Part shown: one piece after another, positions 10,355-63,686 of the stretch | Position numbering within the stretch: the stretch's first letter is position 1 | Layout: every line of letters starts with the position of its first letter | Assembly: GCA_002383495.1 (NCBI GenBank) | Contig: DFZO01000045.1 | Span: 68,442-132,441 of the forward strand | Reading direction: 5' to 3' | Length of the DNA: 64,000 nt | Origin: Syntrophaceae bacterium UBA4054 | GTDB lineage: Bacteria; Desulfobacterota; Syntrophia; Syntrophales; UBA4778 | Notes under the pieces: generated by a model | Told to the model about the DNA's origin: nothing | The model's input: the letters and a program-made list of their open reading frames with translations, nothing else | The model's database searches: none | Position numbers and translations under genes: made by a program

Positions 10355-11758
10355 CTACGGGTCGGGTTCCTCGCTTGAATCCTTGACCCCTGCCGAAGGT
10401 CCGCCTTTGGCGGAACCCCTTGAATCCTGCTTTATCTTTTTCCATTTTTCCAATCTTTCCCGGATGAGCTTTTCGTAGCCCCTGTCCGTGGGCCTGTAAT
10501 AGACTTGGCCTTTGAGCTTGTCGGGCAGGTATTCCTGGGGGGCATAGGCGTCCTCGTAGTTGTGGGCGTAGCGATAATCGCTGCCGTAGCCGAGCTCCTT
10601 CATCAGTCTCGTGGGTGCGTTTCGGATGTGCAGGGGGACGGGCAGGGTGCCGGTTTCACGGATGGACTGCTTCACCTTCCCGTAACCGGCGTACAGGGCG
10701 TTGCTTTTCGGCGCCGTGGCCAGATAAACGGCCGCCTGGGCCAGCGCCAGTTCGCCTTCAGGCAGGCCGATGAACTGGAAGGACTGCATGGCGGACATGG
10801 CGACGGTGAGCGCCTGCGGGTCGGCGTTGCCGATATCTTCCGAGGCGAACCGCACCATCCGGCGGGCGATGTAGAGCGGATCCTCACCCGCGGCGAGCAT
10901 GCGGCCCAGCCAGTAGAGGGCGGCATCGGGATCGCTTCCCCGGAGGCTTTTGTGAAGGGCCGATATGAGGTTGTAATGCTCTTCTCCGAGTTTGTCGTAC
11001 TGAAGAGCCTTTTTCTGCAGGGCCTTTTCGACGATCTCACGGGTGATCCGGCTCCCGCCGGCGCTTTTATCCTGAACCATGGAAGCGGCCGCCTCGAGAT
11101 TGTTCAAGGCGGCGCGGGCGTCCCCATCCGCCGCCCAGATGATTCGCTCCAGGGCCTCGGGCTCGATGTCCAGCGATCGCTTTCCAAAACCCTTATCTCC
11201 GTCGGCCAGCGCGCGTCCCAATATCGTCCGCAGCTCCTCATCGGAATAGGGATGGAGAACAAAGACACGGGTTCGCGAGAGGAGGGGTGCGATGACTTCG
11301 AAGGAAGGATTTTCCGTCGTGGCCCCGATCAGGGTGATGAGACCGCTTTCCACGTGGGGCAGAAAGGCGTCCTGCTGGGCCTTGTTGAAGCGGTGAATCT
11401 CATCGACGAAGAGGATGGTTTTCCTGTTGTTGCGGCGGATCTGCTGTTTGGCTTCCTCGATGACCGCCCGGATTTCCTTCACGCCCGAGAGAACGGCGGA
11501 GAAGGTCTCGAAGTAAGCCCGGGTCTCCCGGACAATGATGCGGGCGAGGGTTGTTTTCCCGGAGCCGGGAGGACCCCAGAAGATCATGGAAAAGAGGAGG
11601 TCCTCTTCCATGGCACGGCGCAGCAGGCTGTCTTTTGCAAGCAGATGCTGCTGACCGATGAATTCATCCAGTGTCCCGGGGCGCATCCGGTCTGCCAGAG
11701 GACGATCTGTCTGTTCGAGTTCTTTGCGGGTCTGATCGAAGAGGTCCATAGTAAACAA
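10355..11758 (-). CDS. rarA: Replication-associated recombination protein A (AAA+ ATPase)
   Basis: Walker [10 protein letters not shown] and Walker [11 protein letters not shown], plus the MgsA C-terminal region. The last ~25 aa are encoded by a repeat (see findings). Confidence 0.9.
10375..10432 (-). repeat. Repeat family R4, copy a, inside the 3' end of rarA
   Basis: 10409-10428 GGCGGAACCCCTTGAATCCT is the perfect reverse complement of 11767-11786. Similarity extends over ~55 nt. Confidence 0.65.
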
Positions 11759-11894: not shown

Positions 11895-11932
11895 AAAAAA
11901 GGGTCGAGAGGTCGTTGTTATTCACTCGACCC
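11895..11932 (-). terminator. Rho-independent terminator downstream of trpB2
   Basis: On the minus strand GGGTCGAG (11932-11925) pairs with CTCGACCC (11908-11901). A T6 run follows (plus-strand A run 11895-11900). Confidence 0.6.
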
Positions 11933-11948
11933 CTCGAACCCTTTCTTT

Positions 11949-13310
11949 TTACGGTTTCGGGAATTTTTCGATGGCCTTTAACGCTCGTTTGATCTCCTCT
12001 TCCGGTAGCTCGTGAGCCTCCAGCTTTCCCGAAAGATAAGCATCGTAGGACGGCAGATCGATGAGTCCGTGACCGCTCCAGTTGAAGAGGATGATCTTCT
12101 TTTTCCCTTCTTCCTTCGCACGGCGGGCCTCTTCCACCACGGCGGCGATGGCGTGGTTCGTCTCCGGCGCGGGGATGAAGCCCTCCGTTCTTGCCCATTT
12201 CACGCCGACATCAAAGGTTTCAATCTGGTTGTACGCTCGTGCCTCAATGAGTTTTTCCTTGCACAGATGACTGATGATGGGTGACATGCCGTGGTAACGC
12301 AGACCGCCCGCGTGAATCGCCTCGGGCACGAAATCGTGGCCCAGCGTGTACATGGCGAGCAGCGGCGTCATCTGGGCGATGTCTCCGAAGTCATAGGCGA
12401 AGGGCCCCCGCGTCAGGGTCGGGCAGGAGCTGGGTTCGGTGGCGATGATCCGGATCTGCTTGCCGTGGATCTTGTCCCGCACGAAGGGGAGGCTGATCCC
12501 GGCAAAGTTGCTCCCGCCGCCCGCGCAGCCAATGACCACGTCGGGGTAGACGCCGATTTTCGCCAGTTGTTTCTGAGCTTCGAGTCCGATGATGGTCTGG
12601 TGCATGCAGACGTGGTTCAGGACGCTCCCCAGCGAGTACTTTGCGTTCTTGCTCGTCACGGCTTCCTCGATGGCTTCGCTGATGGCGATGCCGAGACTGC
12701 CGGGAGAATCGGGATGGTCGGACAGGACCTTCCGCCCCGCCGCGGTCTCGGTGCTGGGACTGGGAACACAGTTGGCGCCCCAGGTGGCCATCATCATCCG
12801 GCGATAGGGCTTCTGCTCGAAGCTGACACGAACCATGAAGACCTTGCATTCTATTCCAAACATGTGGCAGGCCATGCTGAGGGCGCTTCCCCATTGACCG
12901 GCGCCGGTCTCGGTGCATATTTTCTTGGTTCCCGCCAGCTTGTTGTAGTAGGCCTGGGCCACGGCTGTATTGGGCTTGTGGGATCCCGGAGGACTCACGC
13001 CTTCATTCTTGTAGTAGATCTCCACGGGAGCGTCCAGCAGCTTCTCGAAGTTGCGGGCGCGGCAGAGGGGTGAGGGACGCCAGAGAAGATATTTTTCCAG
13101 GATGGGTTCGGGGATGTCGATCCAGCGCTCCGAGCTCACCTCCTGCTCGATGAGGGCCATGGGGAAAATGGGGGCGAGATCCTGGGGCCCCACTGGCTTT
13201 CCTGTCGCCGGATGGAGCGGGGGCGCCATGGGCGTGGGCATGTCTGCCAGGATGTTGTACCATTGTCTGGGAATTTCACTGTCCTTTAATAATACCTTTG
13301 TTTCTTCCAT
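11949..13310 (-). CDS. trpB: TrpB2-type tryptophan synthase beta chain (stand-alone, PLP-dependent)
   Basis: 453 aa, the TrpB2 length class. Motifs GAGQWGSAL and GGGSNFAG. No trpA or other trp genes are adjacent. Confidence 0.85.
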
Positions 13311-13348
13311 GATGCGTCCTCCTTTTTATATGTATTGTCTTACTCTCA

Positions 13349-13380
13349 ATAAAAAAGCCATGGACATAACCCATGGCTTG
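13349..13380 (-). terminator. Attenuator terminator in the trpB2 leader
   Basis: Minus strand reads AAGCCATGG-GTTATGT-CCATGGCTT followed by TTTTT. It lies ~40 nt upstream of the trpB2 ATG. Confidence 0.7.
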
Positions 13381-13437
13381 ATTTTCTTTTGTTCCAGCCA
13401 TGGGAAGGTCCCCCCTTGCCCACGGCCCATTGTATTG

Positions 13438-13518
13438 TCAGAATGGACTTCCTGTGGACAGGCCTGTCATTGCCTGCCACCACCACATTTCGCTTTCCAT
13501 TATTTGTTTCGTTTTCAT
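13438..13518 (-). CDS. Trp-rich leader peptide MKTKQIMESEMWWWQAMTGLSTGSPF
   Basis: Hand translation of the minus strand gives ATG at 13518, three consecutive TGG codons at 13485-13477 and TGA at 13440-13438. AAGGTGA lies 8 nt upstream of the ATG. This ORF is not in the supplied track. Confidence 0.65.
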   Translation of the reverse strand: MKTKQIMESEMWWWQAMTGLSTGSPF

Positions 13519-13606
13519 GAAAAACATCACCTTTCGGTGATTGGCTAACATACTGGCAACTGGGTGTCAAGATAAAAATCGCCTTGCGAGGGGGCGGAAT
13601 GGAACC

Positions 13607-14152
13607 TCAGGGCAGGGATTTCATCAAAATGATCATGTCGTCATTGTCCTTGTAGTAATGGGGGACGCGAGCGACCTCGACATAACCGTTTCTCCGGTAA
13701 AAGGTGCGCGTGGGCTCGTAGTCCTCCCGGGAGGATGTCTCCACGTATATATGCCGTCCCTTTCTTCCGGAAATTCGCTTCTCCGTCTCGTCGACGAGAA
13801 TCTTTCCGATCCCCTTGCCCTGCATGTCCTTTCTCACGGCGATCCAGTACATGTCGTAACGATGATCCGTTGTCTGAATGGGGCCGTAGCAGACATATCC
13901 CACGCATTCCCGATTCCTGTCGGCGAAGATGAAAGAGAAGATGCTTTCCTCTTTCCATTTGATCTGGTCGTCGAGGAGATCGATGGCCACGTCTATTTCA
14001 TAGGGATAAAACAGTTGTGTCGAAAGAAGGATCTTTTTCAGGGCCGACCGGTCCCGGACACGGGCCCCGGTCCTCAGGGTGATCCGATCCTCTGCGTTCG
14101 CGAGGGCTGAAGCCTTTCGAGGCTGCCGGGAGGGAGGGGTGAATGATTTCAT
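13607..14152 (-). CDS. GNAT family N-acetyltransferase
   Basis: The motif Q-G-K-G-I-G-x-x-L (MQGKGIGKILV) is the acetyl-CoA-binding core. The gene starts 3 nt after the stop of the upstream ATP-grasp gene. Confidence 0.75.
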   Translation of the reverse strand: MKSFTPPSRQPRKASALANAEDRITLRTGARVRDRSALKKILLSTQLFYPYEIDVAIDLLDDQIKWKEESIFSFIFADRNRECVGYVCYGPIQTTDHRYDMYWIAVRKDMQGKGIGKILVDETEKRISGRKGRHIYVETSSREDYEPTRTFYRRNGYVEVARVPHYYKDNDDMIILMKSLP

Positions 14153-14155
14153 GAC

Positions 14156-15133
14156 TTACCTGCAGGCCACGGCGATCATTTCCCGGACGAAATCTTCGTT
14201 GGTGTAGCCTGCCTCTCTCACCGAAGAAATGAAGCCCGACTCCCCGCCGATGCAGGGGTTGGGGTTGATTTCGATGATATAGGGATTTCCCCACTGGTCG
14301 AGACGCATATCCACGCGGGTGTAACCTTTCAGGTTAAAGATGTGCCAGCAGCGAAGGGATATTTCCTTGATGAGGTTGAGAGGGGCGTCTTCGGGGGTAA
14401 AGGTTCGCTGGGTATTTTCGTATTCGAAAGAATCTTCAATCCACTTCGCGGCGTAATTGACGATTCGGGGTTTATCCTCGGGCCACTCTTCAAAGGTGAT
14501 TTCCGATATGGGCAGGACCTCCACGCCCGTTTCCGCTTTCTCAAAGAGGGGAACGTTGATCTCCCGGCCGTCGATGTACTGCTCGATGAGAATGGGCTGT
14601 CCGCCATGCTGCTCATGCATCTCGCGAAGTTTCTTTGTCAGGTGTTTCCGGTCTTCCAGGATGGAGCTGTCGTCGATGCCCACCGAGGCATCTTCCCATG
14701 CCGGCTTCACGATCCATGGCGGCGGGACTTTCAGCGGGATCATTTTCCCCCGGAATTCCTGCCACGAGGGGGTCGGGAGGCCATTGGCCGTCAGAATATT
14801 CTTGGCGAGAATTTTATCCGTTGTCGTCAGCAGGGCCTGAAAGGGAACGCCCGTATAGGGGAACCCGGACATTTCGTAAAGAGACGCGACCATGGGGCAA
14901 TAGCGCTGGTCGTCGTTCAATCCCTCGAAGAGATTGAAGACAGCCGCGGGAGAATAGTCCTTCAGCTGCGACAGGAGCTGCAGGAGAGGATCGTTCGTTT
15001 CCCCGATCGGGAAAGACTGGTGCTCATAACCCAGGTTGTTCAGCGCCTCCCGGACCATGGTGACCTGGTCCAGGACGTCAATGGAGTCCAGCCTGTCCGC
15101 CACGGGTTCGTTGTAAACAATGGCCACTTTCAT
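14156..15133 (-). CDS. D-Ala-D-Ala ligase-family ATP-grasp enzyme (paralog 2)
   Basis: 325 aa. Ddl-like layout: MKVAIVYN N-terminus, IVKPAWEDASVGI and YIIEINPNP (Mg-ATP site). Confidence 0.75.
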   Translation of the reverse strand: MKVAIVYNEPVADRLDSIDVLDQVTMVREALNNLGYEHQSFPIGETNDPLLQLLSQLKDYSPAAVFNLFEGLNDDQRYCPMVASLYEMSGFPYTGVPFQALLTTTDKILAKNILTANGLPTPSWQEFRGKMIPLKVPPPWIVKPAWEDASVGIDDSSILEDRKHLTKKLREMHEQHGGQPILIEQYIDGREINVPLFEKAETGVEVLPISEITFEEWPEDKPRIVNYAAKWIEDSFEYENTQRTFTPEDAPLNLIKEISLRCWHIFNLKGYTRVDMRLDQWGNPYIIEINPNPCIGGESGFISSVREAGYTNEDFVREMIAVACR

Positions 15134-16146
15134 ATCTGCTGCCTCTTTTCGTTGAAAAAAACCCTTCGCTTGAGGGCCGATTGAATAATTTCATTGAGAA
15201 GCTCAGGATAAGGAAGGCCCGCCTGGCTGCACAGGATCGGGAGATCCGAGTGAGTAGGATGGAGGCCGGCCAGGGGATTGGCTTCGAGAAAGTGGAGCCG
15301 GCCCTGACCGTCGGCCTTGAGGTCGATCCGCCCGGCATCCCGGCATCCCAGGACCCTGTATGATCGGAGGGCGATATCGGAGGCTTCTTCAATGATTGAA
15401 TGATCCAGAACGAGGGTGTAGCGCACCCGTTCCTCGCAGAACTCCTTGTTCAAAAAGGAGTAGACGAGTGGATCGGCGCTTTCCAGGAGTTCCACTTCCA
15501 GGACGCCCACGGCCCGGGCGCTTTCACCCGTACCGAGGATGCCCACCGTGAATTCCCTCCCCGGGAGATAAGACTCCACGATGACCGGCTGTCCGTAACG
15601 GGAGAGAAGCCGTCTGCACTGGGCCGTCAGTTCCTTCCGGTGGTGAACGATGGATTCAGGGGTCACGCCCTTGCCGGTCCCTTCAGCCAGCGGTTTGACA
15701 AAGAGAGGGTATCCGATCTTCCGGTCTTTTTTCTCTGCCTTCAGGGCTTCCAGGGACGTCACGATGAAAAAATCGGGCGTGGGGATTCCGGCGTCCCGGA
15801 CCATGCTCTTGGTCATGGCCTTATCGAGACTCAGGGCGAGCGTCAGGGGGTCGCTGAAGGTGTAAGGAATGGTATAGGCTTCGAGCAGGGCCGGCACCTG
15901 CGCTTCCCGGCTCCGTCCGTGCAGCCCTTCGGTGATGTTGAAGACGATATCCCATGTCTCGCCCGCTGCCAGCCGTTCCGTCAGGCTGAAGATGTTTCCT
16001 ATCCGGATCACGTCGTGGCCGAGGCCGCGGATCGTCTCTTCAATCAATTGGATGGTTTCGTCGCTGTCAAACTCTCCCGTCTCTTCTTCCGTGTAACCCA
16101 TCTGGAGATAATCTCGTCTGAGGTCATAGGTAAACCCTATCCTCAT
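15130..16146 (-). CDS. D-Ala-D-Ala ligase-family ATP-grasp enzyme (paralog 1)
   Basis: Start reassigned to MRIGFTYDL, with ATG at 16146 forming an ATGA overlap with the kamA stop. Motifs FVKPLAEGTGKG and HFLEANPLAG. The 148-aa upstream extension in the ORF track overlaps kamA. Confidence 0.75.
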   Translation of the reverse strand: MRIGFTYDLRRDYLQMGYTEEETGEFDSDETIQLIEETIRGLGHDVIRIGNIFSLTERLAAGETWDIVFNITEGLHGRSREAQVPALLEAYTIPYTFSDPLTLALSLDKAMTKSMVRDAGIPTPDFFIVTSLEALKAEKKDRKIGYPLFVKPLAEGTGKGVTPESIVHHRKELTAQCRRLLSRYGQPVIVESYLPGREFTVGILGTGESARAVGVLEVELLESADPLVYSFLNKEFCEERVRYTLVLDHSIIEEASDIALRSYRVLGCRDAGRIDLKADGQGRLHFLEANPLAGLHPTHSDLPILCSQAGLPYPELLNEIIQSALKRRVFFNEKRQQI

Positions 16147-17513
16147 GCCTTCTCCCCCTTCATCTTGAAGAGAAGGTTTTTCTTTCTCCTGCGGTACCTC
16201 GGGGTTTCTTCGGGAACCAGGGCCTTCCTCGATCCTTTGATCAGCTGGGCGGTGCCGCCGTCCTTGCCGTTGCCGTTCGACTTGCGCGACTGGATGAAGT
16301 AAGCCTCCTGGGGGTTGTAGTACTTGATAATCATGCCCTCGTAATTTCTCAGGAGCACATCCTTGTCCGTCACCGAGAGAAGATAGAAGGGCTGGAGCGG
16401 TACTTTCCCTCCGCCTCCGGGAACGTCCACGACGAAGGATGGGATGCAGAGACCTCCGGTATAGCCGCGGAGCATCTCGATGATCTCGATTCCCTTCCAG
16501 ATGCTGGTCCTGAAATGTTCCACGCCTTTGACGGGATCGCACTGGAAAAGATAGTAGGGGCGGACCATGATCCTCTGCAGGGCGTGGCAAAGATCGCGCA
16601 TCACGTCGATGGAGTCATTGATGCCCCTCAGGAGGACGGCCTGATTCGATACGGGGATGCCCGCTCTGAGCAGCTTGTCGCAGGCCGCCTGGGAGTCCGG
16701 GGTGATCTCCTTGGGATGATTGAACTGGGTATTGAGCCAGAGGGGGCGGTGCTGGGCCAGCATGTCCACAAGGTCATCGGTGATCCGCATGGGCATAACC
16801 ACAGGCACCCGGGTGCCGATTCTCAGGACTTCCACGTGCTGGATCATCTGCAGCTCGCCCAGAAACCAGTCGAGGACGTTCATGTTCATGACCAGGGGGT
16901 CGCCGCCTGAAACGATGACCTCTCTCACCTCAGGTGTTGCCCGAACGTAGTTGATCATGGACTGAAGCTCTTTCCTGGACCGGATGGATTCGCCTTCATG
17001 CCAGATTCTTTTGCGGGTGCAGTGGCGGCAGTACATGGCGCAGGTGTTCGTGACCACTGCGAGGACCCTGTCGGGATATCGATGCACGAGGCCGGGCACC
17101 TGCATGTCCTCTTCTTCCTCGAGCGGGTCATGATCTCCAACGATCTGAAACTCCGTCTCCCTGAAGTCGGGAATGCACTGCTTTCGGATCGGGTCTTCGG
17201 GGTCGGACCAGTCGATCAGAGAAAGATAGTAGGGTGTGATGGAATAATGAAACAGCTTGAGGAGGGTCCTGTATTTGGAGATCTGGTAAGGGCTCAGTTG
17301 GAACAGAGTGGCCAGGGCATCGACCGTTCGGAGCCGGCTGGCCATCTGCCACGTCCAGTCGTTCCACTGGTCGACTGTTGTGTCGGGCCAGAGCTTCTGA
17401 ATTACATAATCGCCTCTGAAAAGGTCTTCACCATGGAGATGAGAAGCCAGTGATGAGACGACGTTTTTGCCCGGAGGCTCGTCATCTTCATTCGTCACTA
17501 TTCTTGCGTCCAT
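16143..17513 (-). CDS. kamA: Lysine 2,3-aminomutase (radical SAM, PLP)
   Basis: CAMYCRHCTRK cluster, PGGGGK PLP-lysine motif and ITPYYLSLI. Both lysine-epsilon-amine-binding Asp residues are retained: QCD at nt 16536-16538 and VVD at nt 16425-16427. Confidence 0.9.
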   Translation of the reverse strand: MDARIVTNEDDEPPGKNVVSSLASHLHGEDLFRGDYVIQKLWPDTTVDQWNDWTWQMASRLRTVDALATLFQLSPYQISKYRTLLKLFHYSITPYYLSLIDWSDPEDPIRKQCIPDFRETEFQIVGDHDPLEEEEDMQVPGLVHRYPDRVLAVVTNTCAMYCRHCTRKRIWHEGESIRSRKELQSMINYVRATPEVREVIVSGGDPLVMNMNVLDWFLGELQMIQHVEVLRIGTRVPVVMPMRITDDLVDMLAQHRPLWLNTQFNHPKEITPDSQAACDKLLRAGIPVSNQAVLLRGINDSIDVMRDLCHALQRIMVRPYYLFQCDPVKGVEHFRTSIWKGIEIIEMLRGYTGGLCIPSFVVDVPGGGGKVPLQPFYLLSVTDKDVLLRNYEGMIIKYYNPQEAYFIQSRKSNGNGKDGGTAQLIKGSRKALVPEETPRYRRRKKNLLFKMKGEKA

Positions 17514-63380: not shown

Positions 63381-63530
63381 ACATATGAAGATTATTAAAA
63401 AAACTTGACATGATTGTCTTTATAATATTATAGAAAAGCGCTATTTTTAGGTGTTATGAAAGGCTTCAAGTCTACCGTCACTTAACAATGGCACCGCAGG
63501 TTTTTTTGCGGAATATTGCCCCACCATTGA

Positions 63531-63628
63531 GCTTCTCCGATCCACTGCTTCTAAAGATTTATTCCATGAAGGGTGGACGATGGGTAGGATTGGAAACGGT
63601 CTTGCCTCCCGTGCTTGGAAAGGAGAGC
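63531..63628 (+). promoter_or_regulatory. Structured 5' leader element, tentatively Moco/Tuco-riboswitch-like
   Basis: GCUUCUCC (63531-63538) can pair with GGAGAGC (63622-63628), enclosing ~95 nt. CUCCGAUCC and GCCUCCCGUGCUUGGAAAGGAG resemble remembered conserved Moco-motif segments. Not verified. Confidence 0.25.
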
Positions 63629-63686
63629 AGGGGAAAATAATCTCTATATTTTCTTGTTTATCTCTTTTAGAAAGGAGCACGTTGTC

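Follow-up and report, generated by a model that had tools for sequence, protein, structure and literature searches.

Among the described systems, the closest to the element considered here are ribosome-mediated attenuators. The mechanism of attenuation at the Escherichia coli trpL leader has been summarized in PMC1183508, where the extra hairpin lying between the pause hairpin and the terminator of the his operon leader was also modelled as lowering basal read-through. Comparative predictions of trp attenuators with double or triple UGG codons are available for actinobacteria, namely Corynebacterium and Streptomyces (PMC1262725). The bacterial gene trpB2, for its part, is normally found outside the trp operon, and its product is thought to scavenge indole (PMC1854888, PMC2700814); where a genome has an operon trpB1 in addition, the copy away from the operon is designated TrpB2_o (PMC1854888). 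Other arrangements have been published as well: in Geobacter, trpB2 follows trpD and trpC (PMC2700814), and in Corynebacterium diphtheriae 'trpB2A' heads an operon with trpA (PMC1262725). The subject of the present analysis is a tryptophan-codon leader upstream of trpB2 on the minus strand of a 64,000-nucleotide (nt) stretch from Syntrophaceae bacterium UBA4054 (assembly GCA_002383495.1, contig DFZO01000045.1, positions 68,442 to 132,441), which is called the window below and whose own numbering is used throughout.

It may be concluded, with a probability of about 0.85, that this leader would be a functional ribosome-mediated Trp attenuator controlling a monocistronic trpB2 and sensing charged tRNA-Trp. 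The conclusion is based on sequence elements, their complementarity, conservation, partial covariation in orthologues and an exclusive association with trpB2. An attenuator of this type ahead of a stand-alone trpB2 was the original prediction, and it has found support in the leaders of orthologous genes, in the TrpB2 family scores of the gene product and in the lack of a match in Rfam. The elements of the leader and its gene are the following (L numbers denote individual loci).

13565-13570, minus strand: -35 hexamer TTGACA of the leader promoter, read from the sequence.
13542-13550, minus strand: -10-like TAGCCA (13547-13542) with TG before it (13550-13549), 17-nt spacer, weak match.
13526-13541, minus strand: hairpin AUCACC-GAAA-GGUGAU holding the leader Shine-Dalgarno (SD) sequence AAGGTGA (13533-13527), from sequence and fold.
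13438-13518, minus strand: leader open reading frame (ORF) MKTKQIMESEMWWWQAMTGLSTGSPF, 26 codons and the stop codon TGA (13440-13438); the peptide of L027 is identical except for WWWW instead of WWW.
13477-13485, minus strand: three consecutive Trp codons TGGTGGTGG, the regulatory codons.
13317-13326, minus strand: ribosome-binding site AAAAGGAGGA of trpB2.
11949-13310, minus strand: trpB2, 453 amino acids, a TrpB-like pyridoxal phosphate enzyme of the TrpB2 family, by Pfam PALP, NCBIfam and PDB matches.
11895-11941, minus strand: intrinsic terminator 3' of trpB2, GGGTTCGAGGGGTCG, 12-nt loop, CGACCTCTCGACCC and T6, read from the sequence.

Most of these elements had already been named in the original prediction and are indeed present: the hexamer TTGACA, the leader ORF with AAGGTGA 8 nt ahead of its ATG (13518), the three TGG codons, which form the only TGGTGGTGG in the window, and the trpB2 ATG (13310) with its ribosome-binding site, 40 nt past the leader terminator. 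The antiterminator arm was also correctly placed, CCCATGGCT (13404-13396) being a perfect 9-base-pair (bp) complement of AGCCATGGG (13378-13370) in the 5' arm of the terminator. The latter is a hairpin with a T-run, as expected, and was detected by a consensus terminator scan; its span, given as 13380-13349, needed a correction of 1-2 nt, to 13379-13351. It consists of AAGCCATGG (13379-13371), the loop GTTATGT, CCATGGCTT (13363-13355) and T6 ending at 13351, and has a GC-rich stem of 9-11 bp.

The leader promoter is absent from the output of the promoter scan, because at 17-nt spacing the -10 element is only TAGCCA, even though TG precedes it. Transcription would start near 13535. The hairpin at 13526-13541 overlaps this putative start, and its counterpart in L027, GUCACC-GGCA-GGUGAU, retains both the stem and the GNRA loop; such a hairpin could terminate transcripts of the upstream operon or modulate leader translation. 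A public JGI gene call (L201, 1760-1873, corresponding to window positions 13551-13438) shows an ORF of 37 amino acids, in which the leader ORF is extended to an ATG at 13551. This start is probably not used, because it lies upstream of the presumed transcription start.

The gene downstream is a genuine TrpB2. Its product scores 744 bits with NF009057 (cut-off 366) and 650 bits with TIGR01415 (cut-off 519) versus 144 bits, under the cut-off of the model, with the TrpB1 model TIGR00263, and the PDB entries that it matches best are three archaeal TrpB2 structures, 6hul, 4qys and 6hte (E 1e-120 or better). The terminator at 11941-11895, with a 14-bp stem, comes directly after the trpB2 stop codon and renders the unit monocistronic; it was missed by the terminator scan because its 12-nt loop exceeds the 8-nt loop limit of the scan. 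A tblastn search of the window with TrpD and TrpC (from L050) and TrpB2 gave no trpD, trpC or trpB1 homologue, the sole match being trpB2 itself. With a promoter-like site in front and a terminator of its own behind, the gene stands alone in the window, as had been supposed.

The Trp codons are located more than 70 nt upstream of the antiterminator arm, beyond the direct reach of a stalled ribosome, and for this reason a relay of six segments, A to F, is needed. The initial model of two mutually exclusive hairpins holds as far as D:E and E:F are concerned; it offered no link from the codons at 13485-13477 to position 13404, for which segments A, B and C are required. A chain of complementarity, A-B, B-C, C-D, D-E and E-F, runs through the window leader and the aligned homologous leaders.

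13472-13480, minus strand: segment A, GUGGCAGGC, overlapping the second and third Trp codons, pairs with B.
13454-13463, minus strand: segment B, GCCUGUCCAC, partner of A or C.
13414-13427, minus strand: segment C, GGCCGUGGGCAAGG, partner of B or D.
13396-13408, minus strand: segment D, CCUUCCCAUGGCU, containing CCCATGGCT, partner of C (the 'extra hairpin') or E (the antiterminator).
13370-13379, minus strand: segment E, AAGCCAUGGG, forms the 5' arm of the terminator or pairs with D.
13351-13363, minus strand: segment F, CCAUGGCUU (13363-13355), the 3' arm of the terminator, with the T-run 13356-13351.

Helix A:B is the probable pause hairpin, and B:C is extended by flanking nucleotides, 13431-13425 pairing with 13448-13442. 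Since A overlaps the Trp codons, B:C excludes C:D and D:E excludes E:F, the following sequence of events can be proposed, in which we infer how much RNA the ribosome covers, the order of folding in time and the effect of tryptophan. Transcription would begin 3' of the TTGACA promoter, with the leader ORF translated while it emerges. When Trp-tRNA is plentiful, the ribosome should clear the three UGG codons and reach the stop codon at 13440-13438, unwinding and covering B and its 3' extension; C would then pair with D immediately after synthesis of the latter, E would be left to F, and the E:F hairpin with its U-run would stop transcription about 40 nt before trpB2, giving a terminated leader RNA of about 185 nt. 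In the case of no translation, A:B would form, with the same terminated outcome. When Trp-tRNA is scarce, the ribosome would stall at 13485-13477 and melt A, which overlaps the last two UGG codons, so that free B could capture the emerging C, D could then pair with E, and F would remain without a partner, allowing RNA polymerase to read through into trpB2. In our opinion, the specific six-segment relay as drawn here is quite probable.

Folding calculations agree with parts of this scheme. The leader region is more stable than shuffled sequence (z = -4.7). With a ribosome on the third UGG codon (RNA free from 13464) and RNA made through C, a 17-bp imperfect B:C hairpin is obtained (-16.2 kcal/mol), extended by 13452-13451:13425-13424 and 13447-13442:13431-13426. 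For the same ribosome position, the minimum free energy (MFE) structure is C:D through D (-27.7 kcal/mol), B:C + D:E through E (-33.7 kcal/mol) and C:D + E:F through F (-42.3 kcal/mol). When B and its extension are blocked by a ribosome that has moved on, C:D is the MFE structure through E (-22.5 kcal/mol), and RNA free of ribosomes folds through F into A:B + C:D + E:F (-56.6 kcal/mol). The MFE structure of a long transcript (13545-13311) combines A:B with a C:F/D:E junction (-78.6 kcal/mol).

Conservation was scored on 15 homologous six-segment leaders (alignment A2). In the terminated state, A:B + C:D + E:F, 93.9% of the cells are paired versus 34-48% in slid controls, compensatory change is seen at 6 pairs, and the observed measures were reached by 0-3 of 500 column shuffles. 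Particularly, A:B is 97.7% paired and E:F 91.9%, each with compensatory changes at 2 pairs, and C:D is 92.7% paired; RNAalifold independently yields the same three helices. In the read-through state, B:C + D:E, 92.0% of the cells are paired versus 27-42% in slid controls (99% for B:C alone and 86.7% for D:E). In L144, L147, L174 and L089 the GUGGGCA of segment C is changed into GUGGGUG, which still pairs with B via G-U, and a matching change in D preserves C:D.

Two placements of the stop codon were found among 22 leaders. In 14 of them, including all eight leaders of a four-segment class compared below, it ends 3 nt before the core of B, and a terminating ribosome would cover B. In the other eight (the window, L027, L003, L147, L174 and L089, and the variants L026 and L095) it is situated between B and C, usually 13-14 nt after the B core; here the ribosome would already have unwound B and would cover the B:C extension, with B at most partly covered and C free for D. 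Both placements fit the attenuator model with the footprint sizes assumed.

Further evidence comes from 80 orthologous trpB2 loci, of which 77 were usable for upstream counts over the 450 nt 5' of trpB2. A Trp-codon leader ORF is present in about 19 of the 77, followed by a terminator in nearly all cases. The upstream regions of orthologues had been set in advance as the place where the attenuator might be refuted, and Trp-rich leader ORFs with terminators after them are what was found upstream of many trpB2 genes. Three consecutive TGG codons occur on the sense strand in 9 of the 77 upstream regions and on the antisense strand in none, about 0.5 being expected from 14 occurrences elsewhere in these loci (950 kb, both strands). 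No codon triplet was enriched upstream of trpB2 in the 77 loci beyond the TGG triplet and phase-shifted readings of its run.

The leader peptides include MSLRGGHKAFYWWWQAVR in L001, MSISVEPKTFYWWWQAVT in L022, MGALSESTIWWWQTLTVCPQ in L026 and MISYLKTDLNNWWWRSMHIGERMAG in L023, all four followed by a stop codon, the C-terminal sequences VWWWQALR in L009 and L029 and GWWWQVVI in L042, and a peptide beginning with MKMIYRNYIVTCWWWCF in L060 (Bacteroidales). The Trp run varies: WLW was found in L011, L014 and L021, WRW in L007, and WW in L003 and L030. The N-termini of the peptides vary freely, and the W run and the RNA segments are retained. The inspected ORFs start with ATG or GTG, mostly with an SD-like purine run ahead, which is weaker in L001 and L003. 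A CTTGACA box 5' of the ORF, already familiar from the window, and a hairpin with a T-run 3' of it are common to nearly all leader loci that were read, L013 being the exception, and the -10 hexamers of the orthologues (TATTTA, TATGAA, TATTAT) are closer to the consensus at the same spacing as in the window. In many genomes this arrangement precedes trpB2, with quite different genes lying farther upstream.

A leader profile used with nhmmer recovered about 15 of the 80 loci and, in the window, the single site 13489-13349; no second copy of the leader was found by this profile in the 64 kb. A metagenome collection was scanned with the A:B motif TGGTGGCAGG-N6-14-CCTGYCCAC. Many of the matches were due to chance and lay inside genes; among further WWW leaders obtained, trpB2 follows in seven out of seven that have enough downstream DNA (L095, L141, L144, L147, L155, L156 and L163). 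One group of motif matches, whose peptides end in NAFWWQG[IV] before the stop codon, was rejected: it is a repeated element unrelated to the leader, with varying neighbouring genes and no downstream trp gene, and occurs in human-gut and other metagenomes (L081, L084, L104, L105, L112, L118, L120, L135, L139, L158, L162, L164, L180, L182, L183, L189 and L193).

In several orthologues (L022, 2760-3000; L007, 2820-3000; L147), the attenuator terminator and trpB2 are separated by 200-270 nt of unrelated sequence, therefore the attenuator tolerates a long spacer before its gene. The spacer of L022 is a palindromic insert, and that of L147 is a run of (A/G)AAAGG(A/T)-type repeats. L023, L030, L042 and the Bacteroidales locus L060 appear to carry Trp-run leaders that belong to other lineages, are unrelated to that of the window and also precede trpB2. 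With the Trp codons masked, the equilibrium folds of these four always retain the terminator, so MFE folding cannot reveal their antiterminators, and the claim for them is limited to a Trp-run ORF and a terminator.

A number of observations weigh against the attenuator proposed here. The -10 hexamer TAGCCA is poor, agreeing with the consensus TATAAT at 2 of 6 positions. The stop codon of the window leader comes after B, so the blocking of B:C by a terminating ribosome depends on the assumed footprint sizes. About half of the close orthologues (among them L002, L005, L006, L008, L012, L016 and L049) have no leader, and degenerate relatives exist: L004 (2823-2976) has RWRR in place of WWW, with TGG changed into CGG, L015 (2833-2978) has one Trp codon left, and in L013 (417-499) the ORF, A and B are lost and C:D and E:F retained. 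These three look like decaying relatives of the leader. The equilibrium energies are also unfavourable: after synthesis of D, C:D (-21.9 kcal/mol) is favoured over B:C (-16.2 kcal/mol), and after synthesis of F the terminated state has an advantage of about 9 kcal/mol. Read-through is thus a matter of kinetics and would be decided by which structure forms first. To our knowledge, the terminated fold is the thermodynamic sink in all attenuators. Finally, folding of the region and a search for covariation, both suggested with the original prediction, gave the stability and the compensatory changes of the terminated state described above, and in the read-through helices B:C and D:E no double compensatory change was found among the 15 leaders. 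Such an absence is expected, because each segment must satisfy two partners, and the same point has been made for other attenuators (PMC1262725). The support for the read-through state thus consists of conservation and register, not covariation.

Several rival explanations have to be considered together with these points. It is quite unlikely that only a four-segment attenuator exists here, in which D:E competes with E:F, maybe stabilized by a three-way junction of C:F and D:E, and in which A, B and C:D have no relay role. The perfect 9-bp complementarity of D and E, the C:F/D:E junction in the MFE structure of the long transcript and the existence of a related leader class that truly has four segments only are in its favour, but it leaves the Trp codons more than 70 nt from D and so gives no link from Trp supply to the choice of D:E; moreover, the 15 leaders show conservation of A:B, B:C and C:D in register. 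In the four-segment class itself, the homologue of C:D serves as the terminator, its 5' arm being the partner of B, which shows B:C to be the ancestral sensing step. A different possibility is a further role in trans of the 26-residue peptide or of the leader RNA released by termination (about 185 nt), which would be an addition to attenuation rather than its replacement. We regard this as unlikely: the peptide outside WWWQ is not conserved between the leader subfamilies, and the RNA strand UGGUGGCAGGC accounts for the conserved WWQ(A/G/V). At the same time, the nucleotide conservation exceeds the needs of pairing, and a precedent for trans-acting products of a Trp attenuator is provided by rnTrpL and peTrpL of Sinorhizobium meliloti (PMC6614838, PMC7298713).

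Sensing by non-ribosomal means, such as a T-box, a TRAP-like protein or a small-molecule riboswitch, with the WWW ORF being incidental, would agree with the highly structured character of the region and with nucleotide conservation beyond the ORF, for example at CCATTCT. It is nevertheless very unlikely, as the start codon, SD sequence, in-frame W run and positioned stop codon recur among leaders with otherwise unrelated peptides, a pattern that only translation explains. A search of the leader and its flanks against Rfam, including the T-box and Trp_leader (RF00513) families, gave no family match at E values up to 10; the region 12800-14200 gave only three noise matches with E above 5, and nothing matched at the gathering score in 12 orthologous loci. 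The view that no regulation exists at all, the ORF being fortuitous and the hairpin closing off the upstream GNAT operon as a constitutive terminator or insulator, is hardly credible. One TGGTGGTGG per 64 kb is in itself unremarkable, at least one being present in 28 of 100 shuffled windows, and the -10 element of the window is weak; against this stand the recurrence of the arrangement before trpB2 behind differing upstream genes in many genomes, the strong sense-strand excess of the TGG triplet, and the presence of trpB2 after all seven motif-scan leaders with enough downstream DNA. Ribosome-mediated attenuation therefore remains, in our opinion, the best account of the locus.

Two candidate features of the leader were examined and rejected. 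TRAP-type (G/U)AG repeats were sought, and no run of GAG/UAG is visible in the leader sequence. The conserved CCATTCT, located between B and C, was considered as an anti-SD sequence of trpB2; RNAduplex energies compared with shuffles were significant in only 2 of 13 loci, several being worse than the shuffles.

The neighbourhood of the trpB2 unit contains the following genes upstream.

13607-14152, minus strand: GNAT acetyltransferase.
14156-15133 and about 15130-16590, minus strand: two ATP-grasp genes resembling D-Ala-D-Ala ligase.
16143-17513, minus strand: lysine-2,3-aminomutase-like radical SAM gene.

This cluster (13607-17513, minus strand) is also found in L027 and looks like a pathway to a product derived from beta-lysine. 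Downstream, rarA/mgsA (10355-11758) comes about 190 nt after the trpB2 terminator, and the trpB2-rarA neighbourhood is retained in L027, L044, L002, L049, L017 and L028. The closest genome match, with 94% identity, is an uncultured Syntrophaceae metagenome-assembled genome, and an identical TrpB2 protein occurs on contigs from hydrocarbon-degrading methanogenic samples. At the far end of the window, a Moco riboswitch (molybdenum/tungsten cofactor, RF01055) lies at 63523-63641 on the plus strand, with 71.6 bits versus a gathering score of 36.

The mechanism itself is ordinary, since classical attenuation is textbook knowledge; what seems to be new is its dedicated use on trpB2. On balance, it is more likely than not that the window leader belongs to an undescribed and fairly widespread RNA family of Desulfobacterota, made up of Trp-codon leaders dedicated to stand-alone trpB2 in four-segment and six-segment forms, the latter having arisen through tandem duplication of the terminator hairpin. 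In the literature, no description of a Trp leader before trpB2 in delta-proteobacteria was found; 'undescribed' is provisional, as an earlier mention is possible in Lopatovskaya et al. 2010, a large-scale attenuator survey cited in PMC4833913. These trpB2 leaders would be an RNA family missing from Rfam, and they would extend ribosome-mediated Trp attenuation to Syntrophales, Syntrophobacterales and bacteria of the Desulfobacterales type.

If the proposed regulation is true, TrpB2 encoded out of the operon would be induced specifically by undercharging of tRNA-Trp. What this protein does is still a matter of debate, the arguments coming from enzymology and gene context and indole salvage being one proposal (PMC2700814, PMC1854888). 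A conserved element that senses tRNA-Trp charging and stands before trpB2 alone would mean that tryptophan shortage raises the cell's demand for TrpB2. It would be direct regulatory evidence that TrpB2 makes tryptophan, for example from indole scavenged in syntrophic consortia, and does not catalyse an unrelated reaction. This argument from regulation is testable, and fusions of the leaders to reporters would provide a simple handle in organisms that are hard to study.

In comparison with known systems, the window leader resembles E. coli trpL (RF00513) in having a short leader ORF, tandem UGG codons, an intrinsic terminator and a mutually exclusive antiterminator, in sensing Trp-tRNA, and in a stop codon set so that a ribosome that does not stall blocks the antiterminating pairing. 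In the leaders with the stop codon before B, the terminating ribosome would sit on B, as the trpL stop codon places it for segment 2. The differences are no less clear. The two leaders have no homology in sequence or structure, that of the window has six segments instead of four and three Trp codons instead of two, and it controls trpB2 alone, whereas trpL controls trpEDCBA. E. coli is a gamma-proteobacterium, and the host of the window is Syntrophaceae-like and belongs to Desulfobacterota.

The his leader of Salmonella and E. coli shares with the window leader a pause hairpin at the regulatory codons, an extra hairpin and a terminator, with the alternative pairings shifted by one segment. A lettered scheme of just this kind, A:B/C:D/E:F versus B:C/D:E, is said to have been given for Salmonella his by Johnston et al. 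in 1980. Unlike the window leader with its three Trp codons, the his leader has seven His codons, and its sequence is unrelated; in addition, C:D and E:F of the window leader are near-copies of each other. The actinobacterial trp attenuators are likewise classical, located outside gamma-proteobacteria, and composed of multiply interacting segments conserved over large distances, but they precede trpE-type operons or trpS and show no sequence relation to the window leader. As to the gene, trpB2 of Geobacteraceae, embedded in an operon, encodes an orthologous TrpB2 with about 63% identity; in contrast to the gene of the window, it stands directly after trpD and trpC and has no leader of its own.

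The nearest relatives are the four-segment, Syntrophobacter-type trpB2 leaders (L009, L011, L014, L021, L029, L115, L141 and L163). Their A:B region is homologous to that of the window (nhmmer E 1e-7 to 1e-11), and the WWWQ or WLWQ end of the leader peptide, the B:C logic and the trpB2 gene downstream are shared. In these leaders, however, the U-run belongs to the C:D-type hairpin, which itself acts as the terminator; segments E and F are missing, and the window leader has one hairpin more. Every six-segment leader has nearly identical C:D and E:F hairpins, and in one such leader, L144, the C:D hairpin is followed by the T-run CTCTTTTTCG, hence there are two terminators in tandem. The near-copies and this T-run suggest a tandem duplication of the four-segment terminator hairpin as the origin of the six-segment form. 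Should this be true, the two forms would represent a clean natural example of an attenuator gaining a his-type 'extra hairpin' with the sign of regulation unchanged, because duplication of the terminator automatically adds a relay step and preserves that sign.

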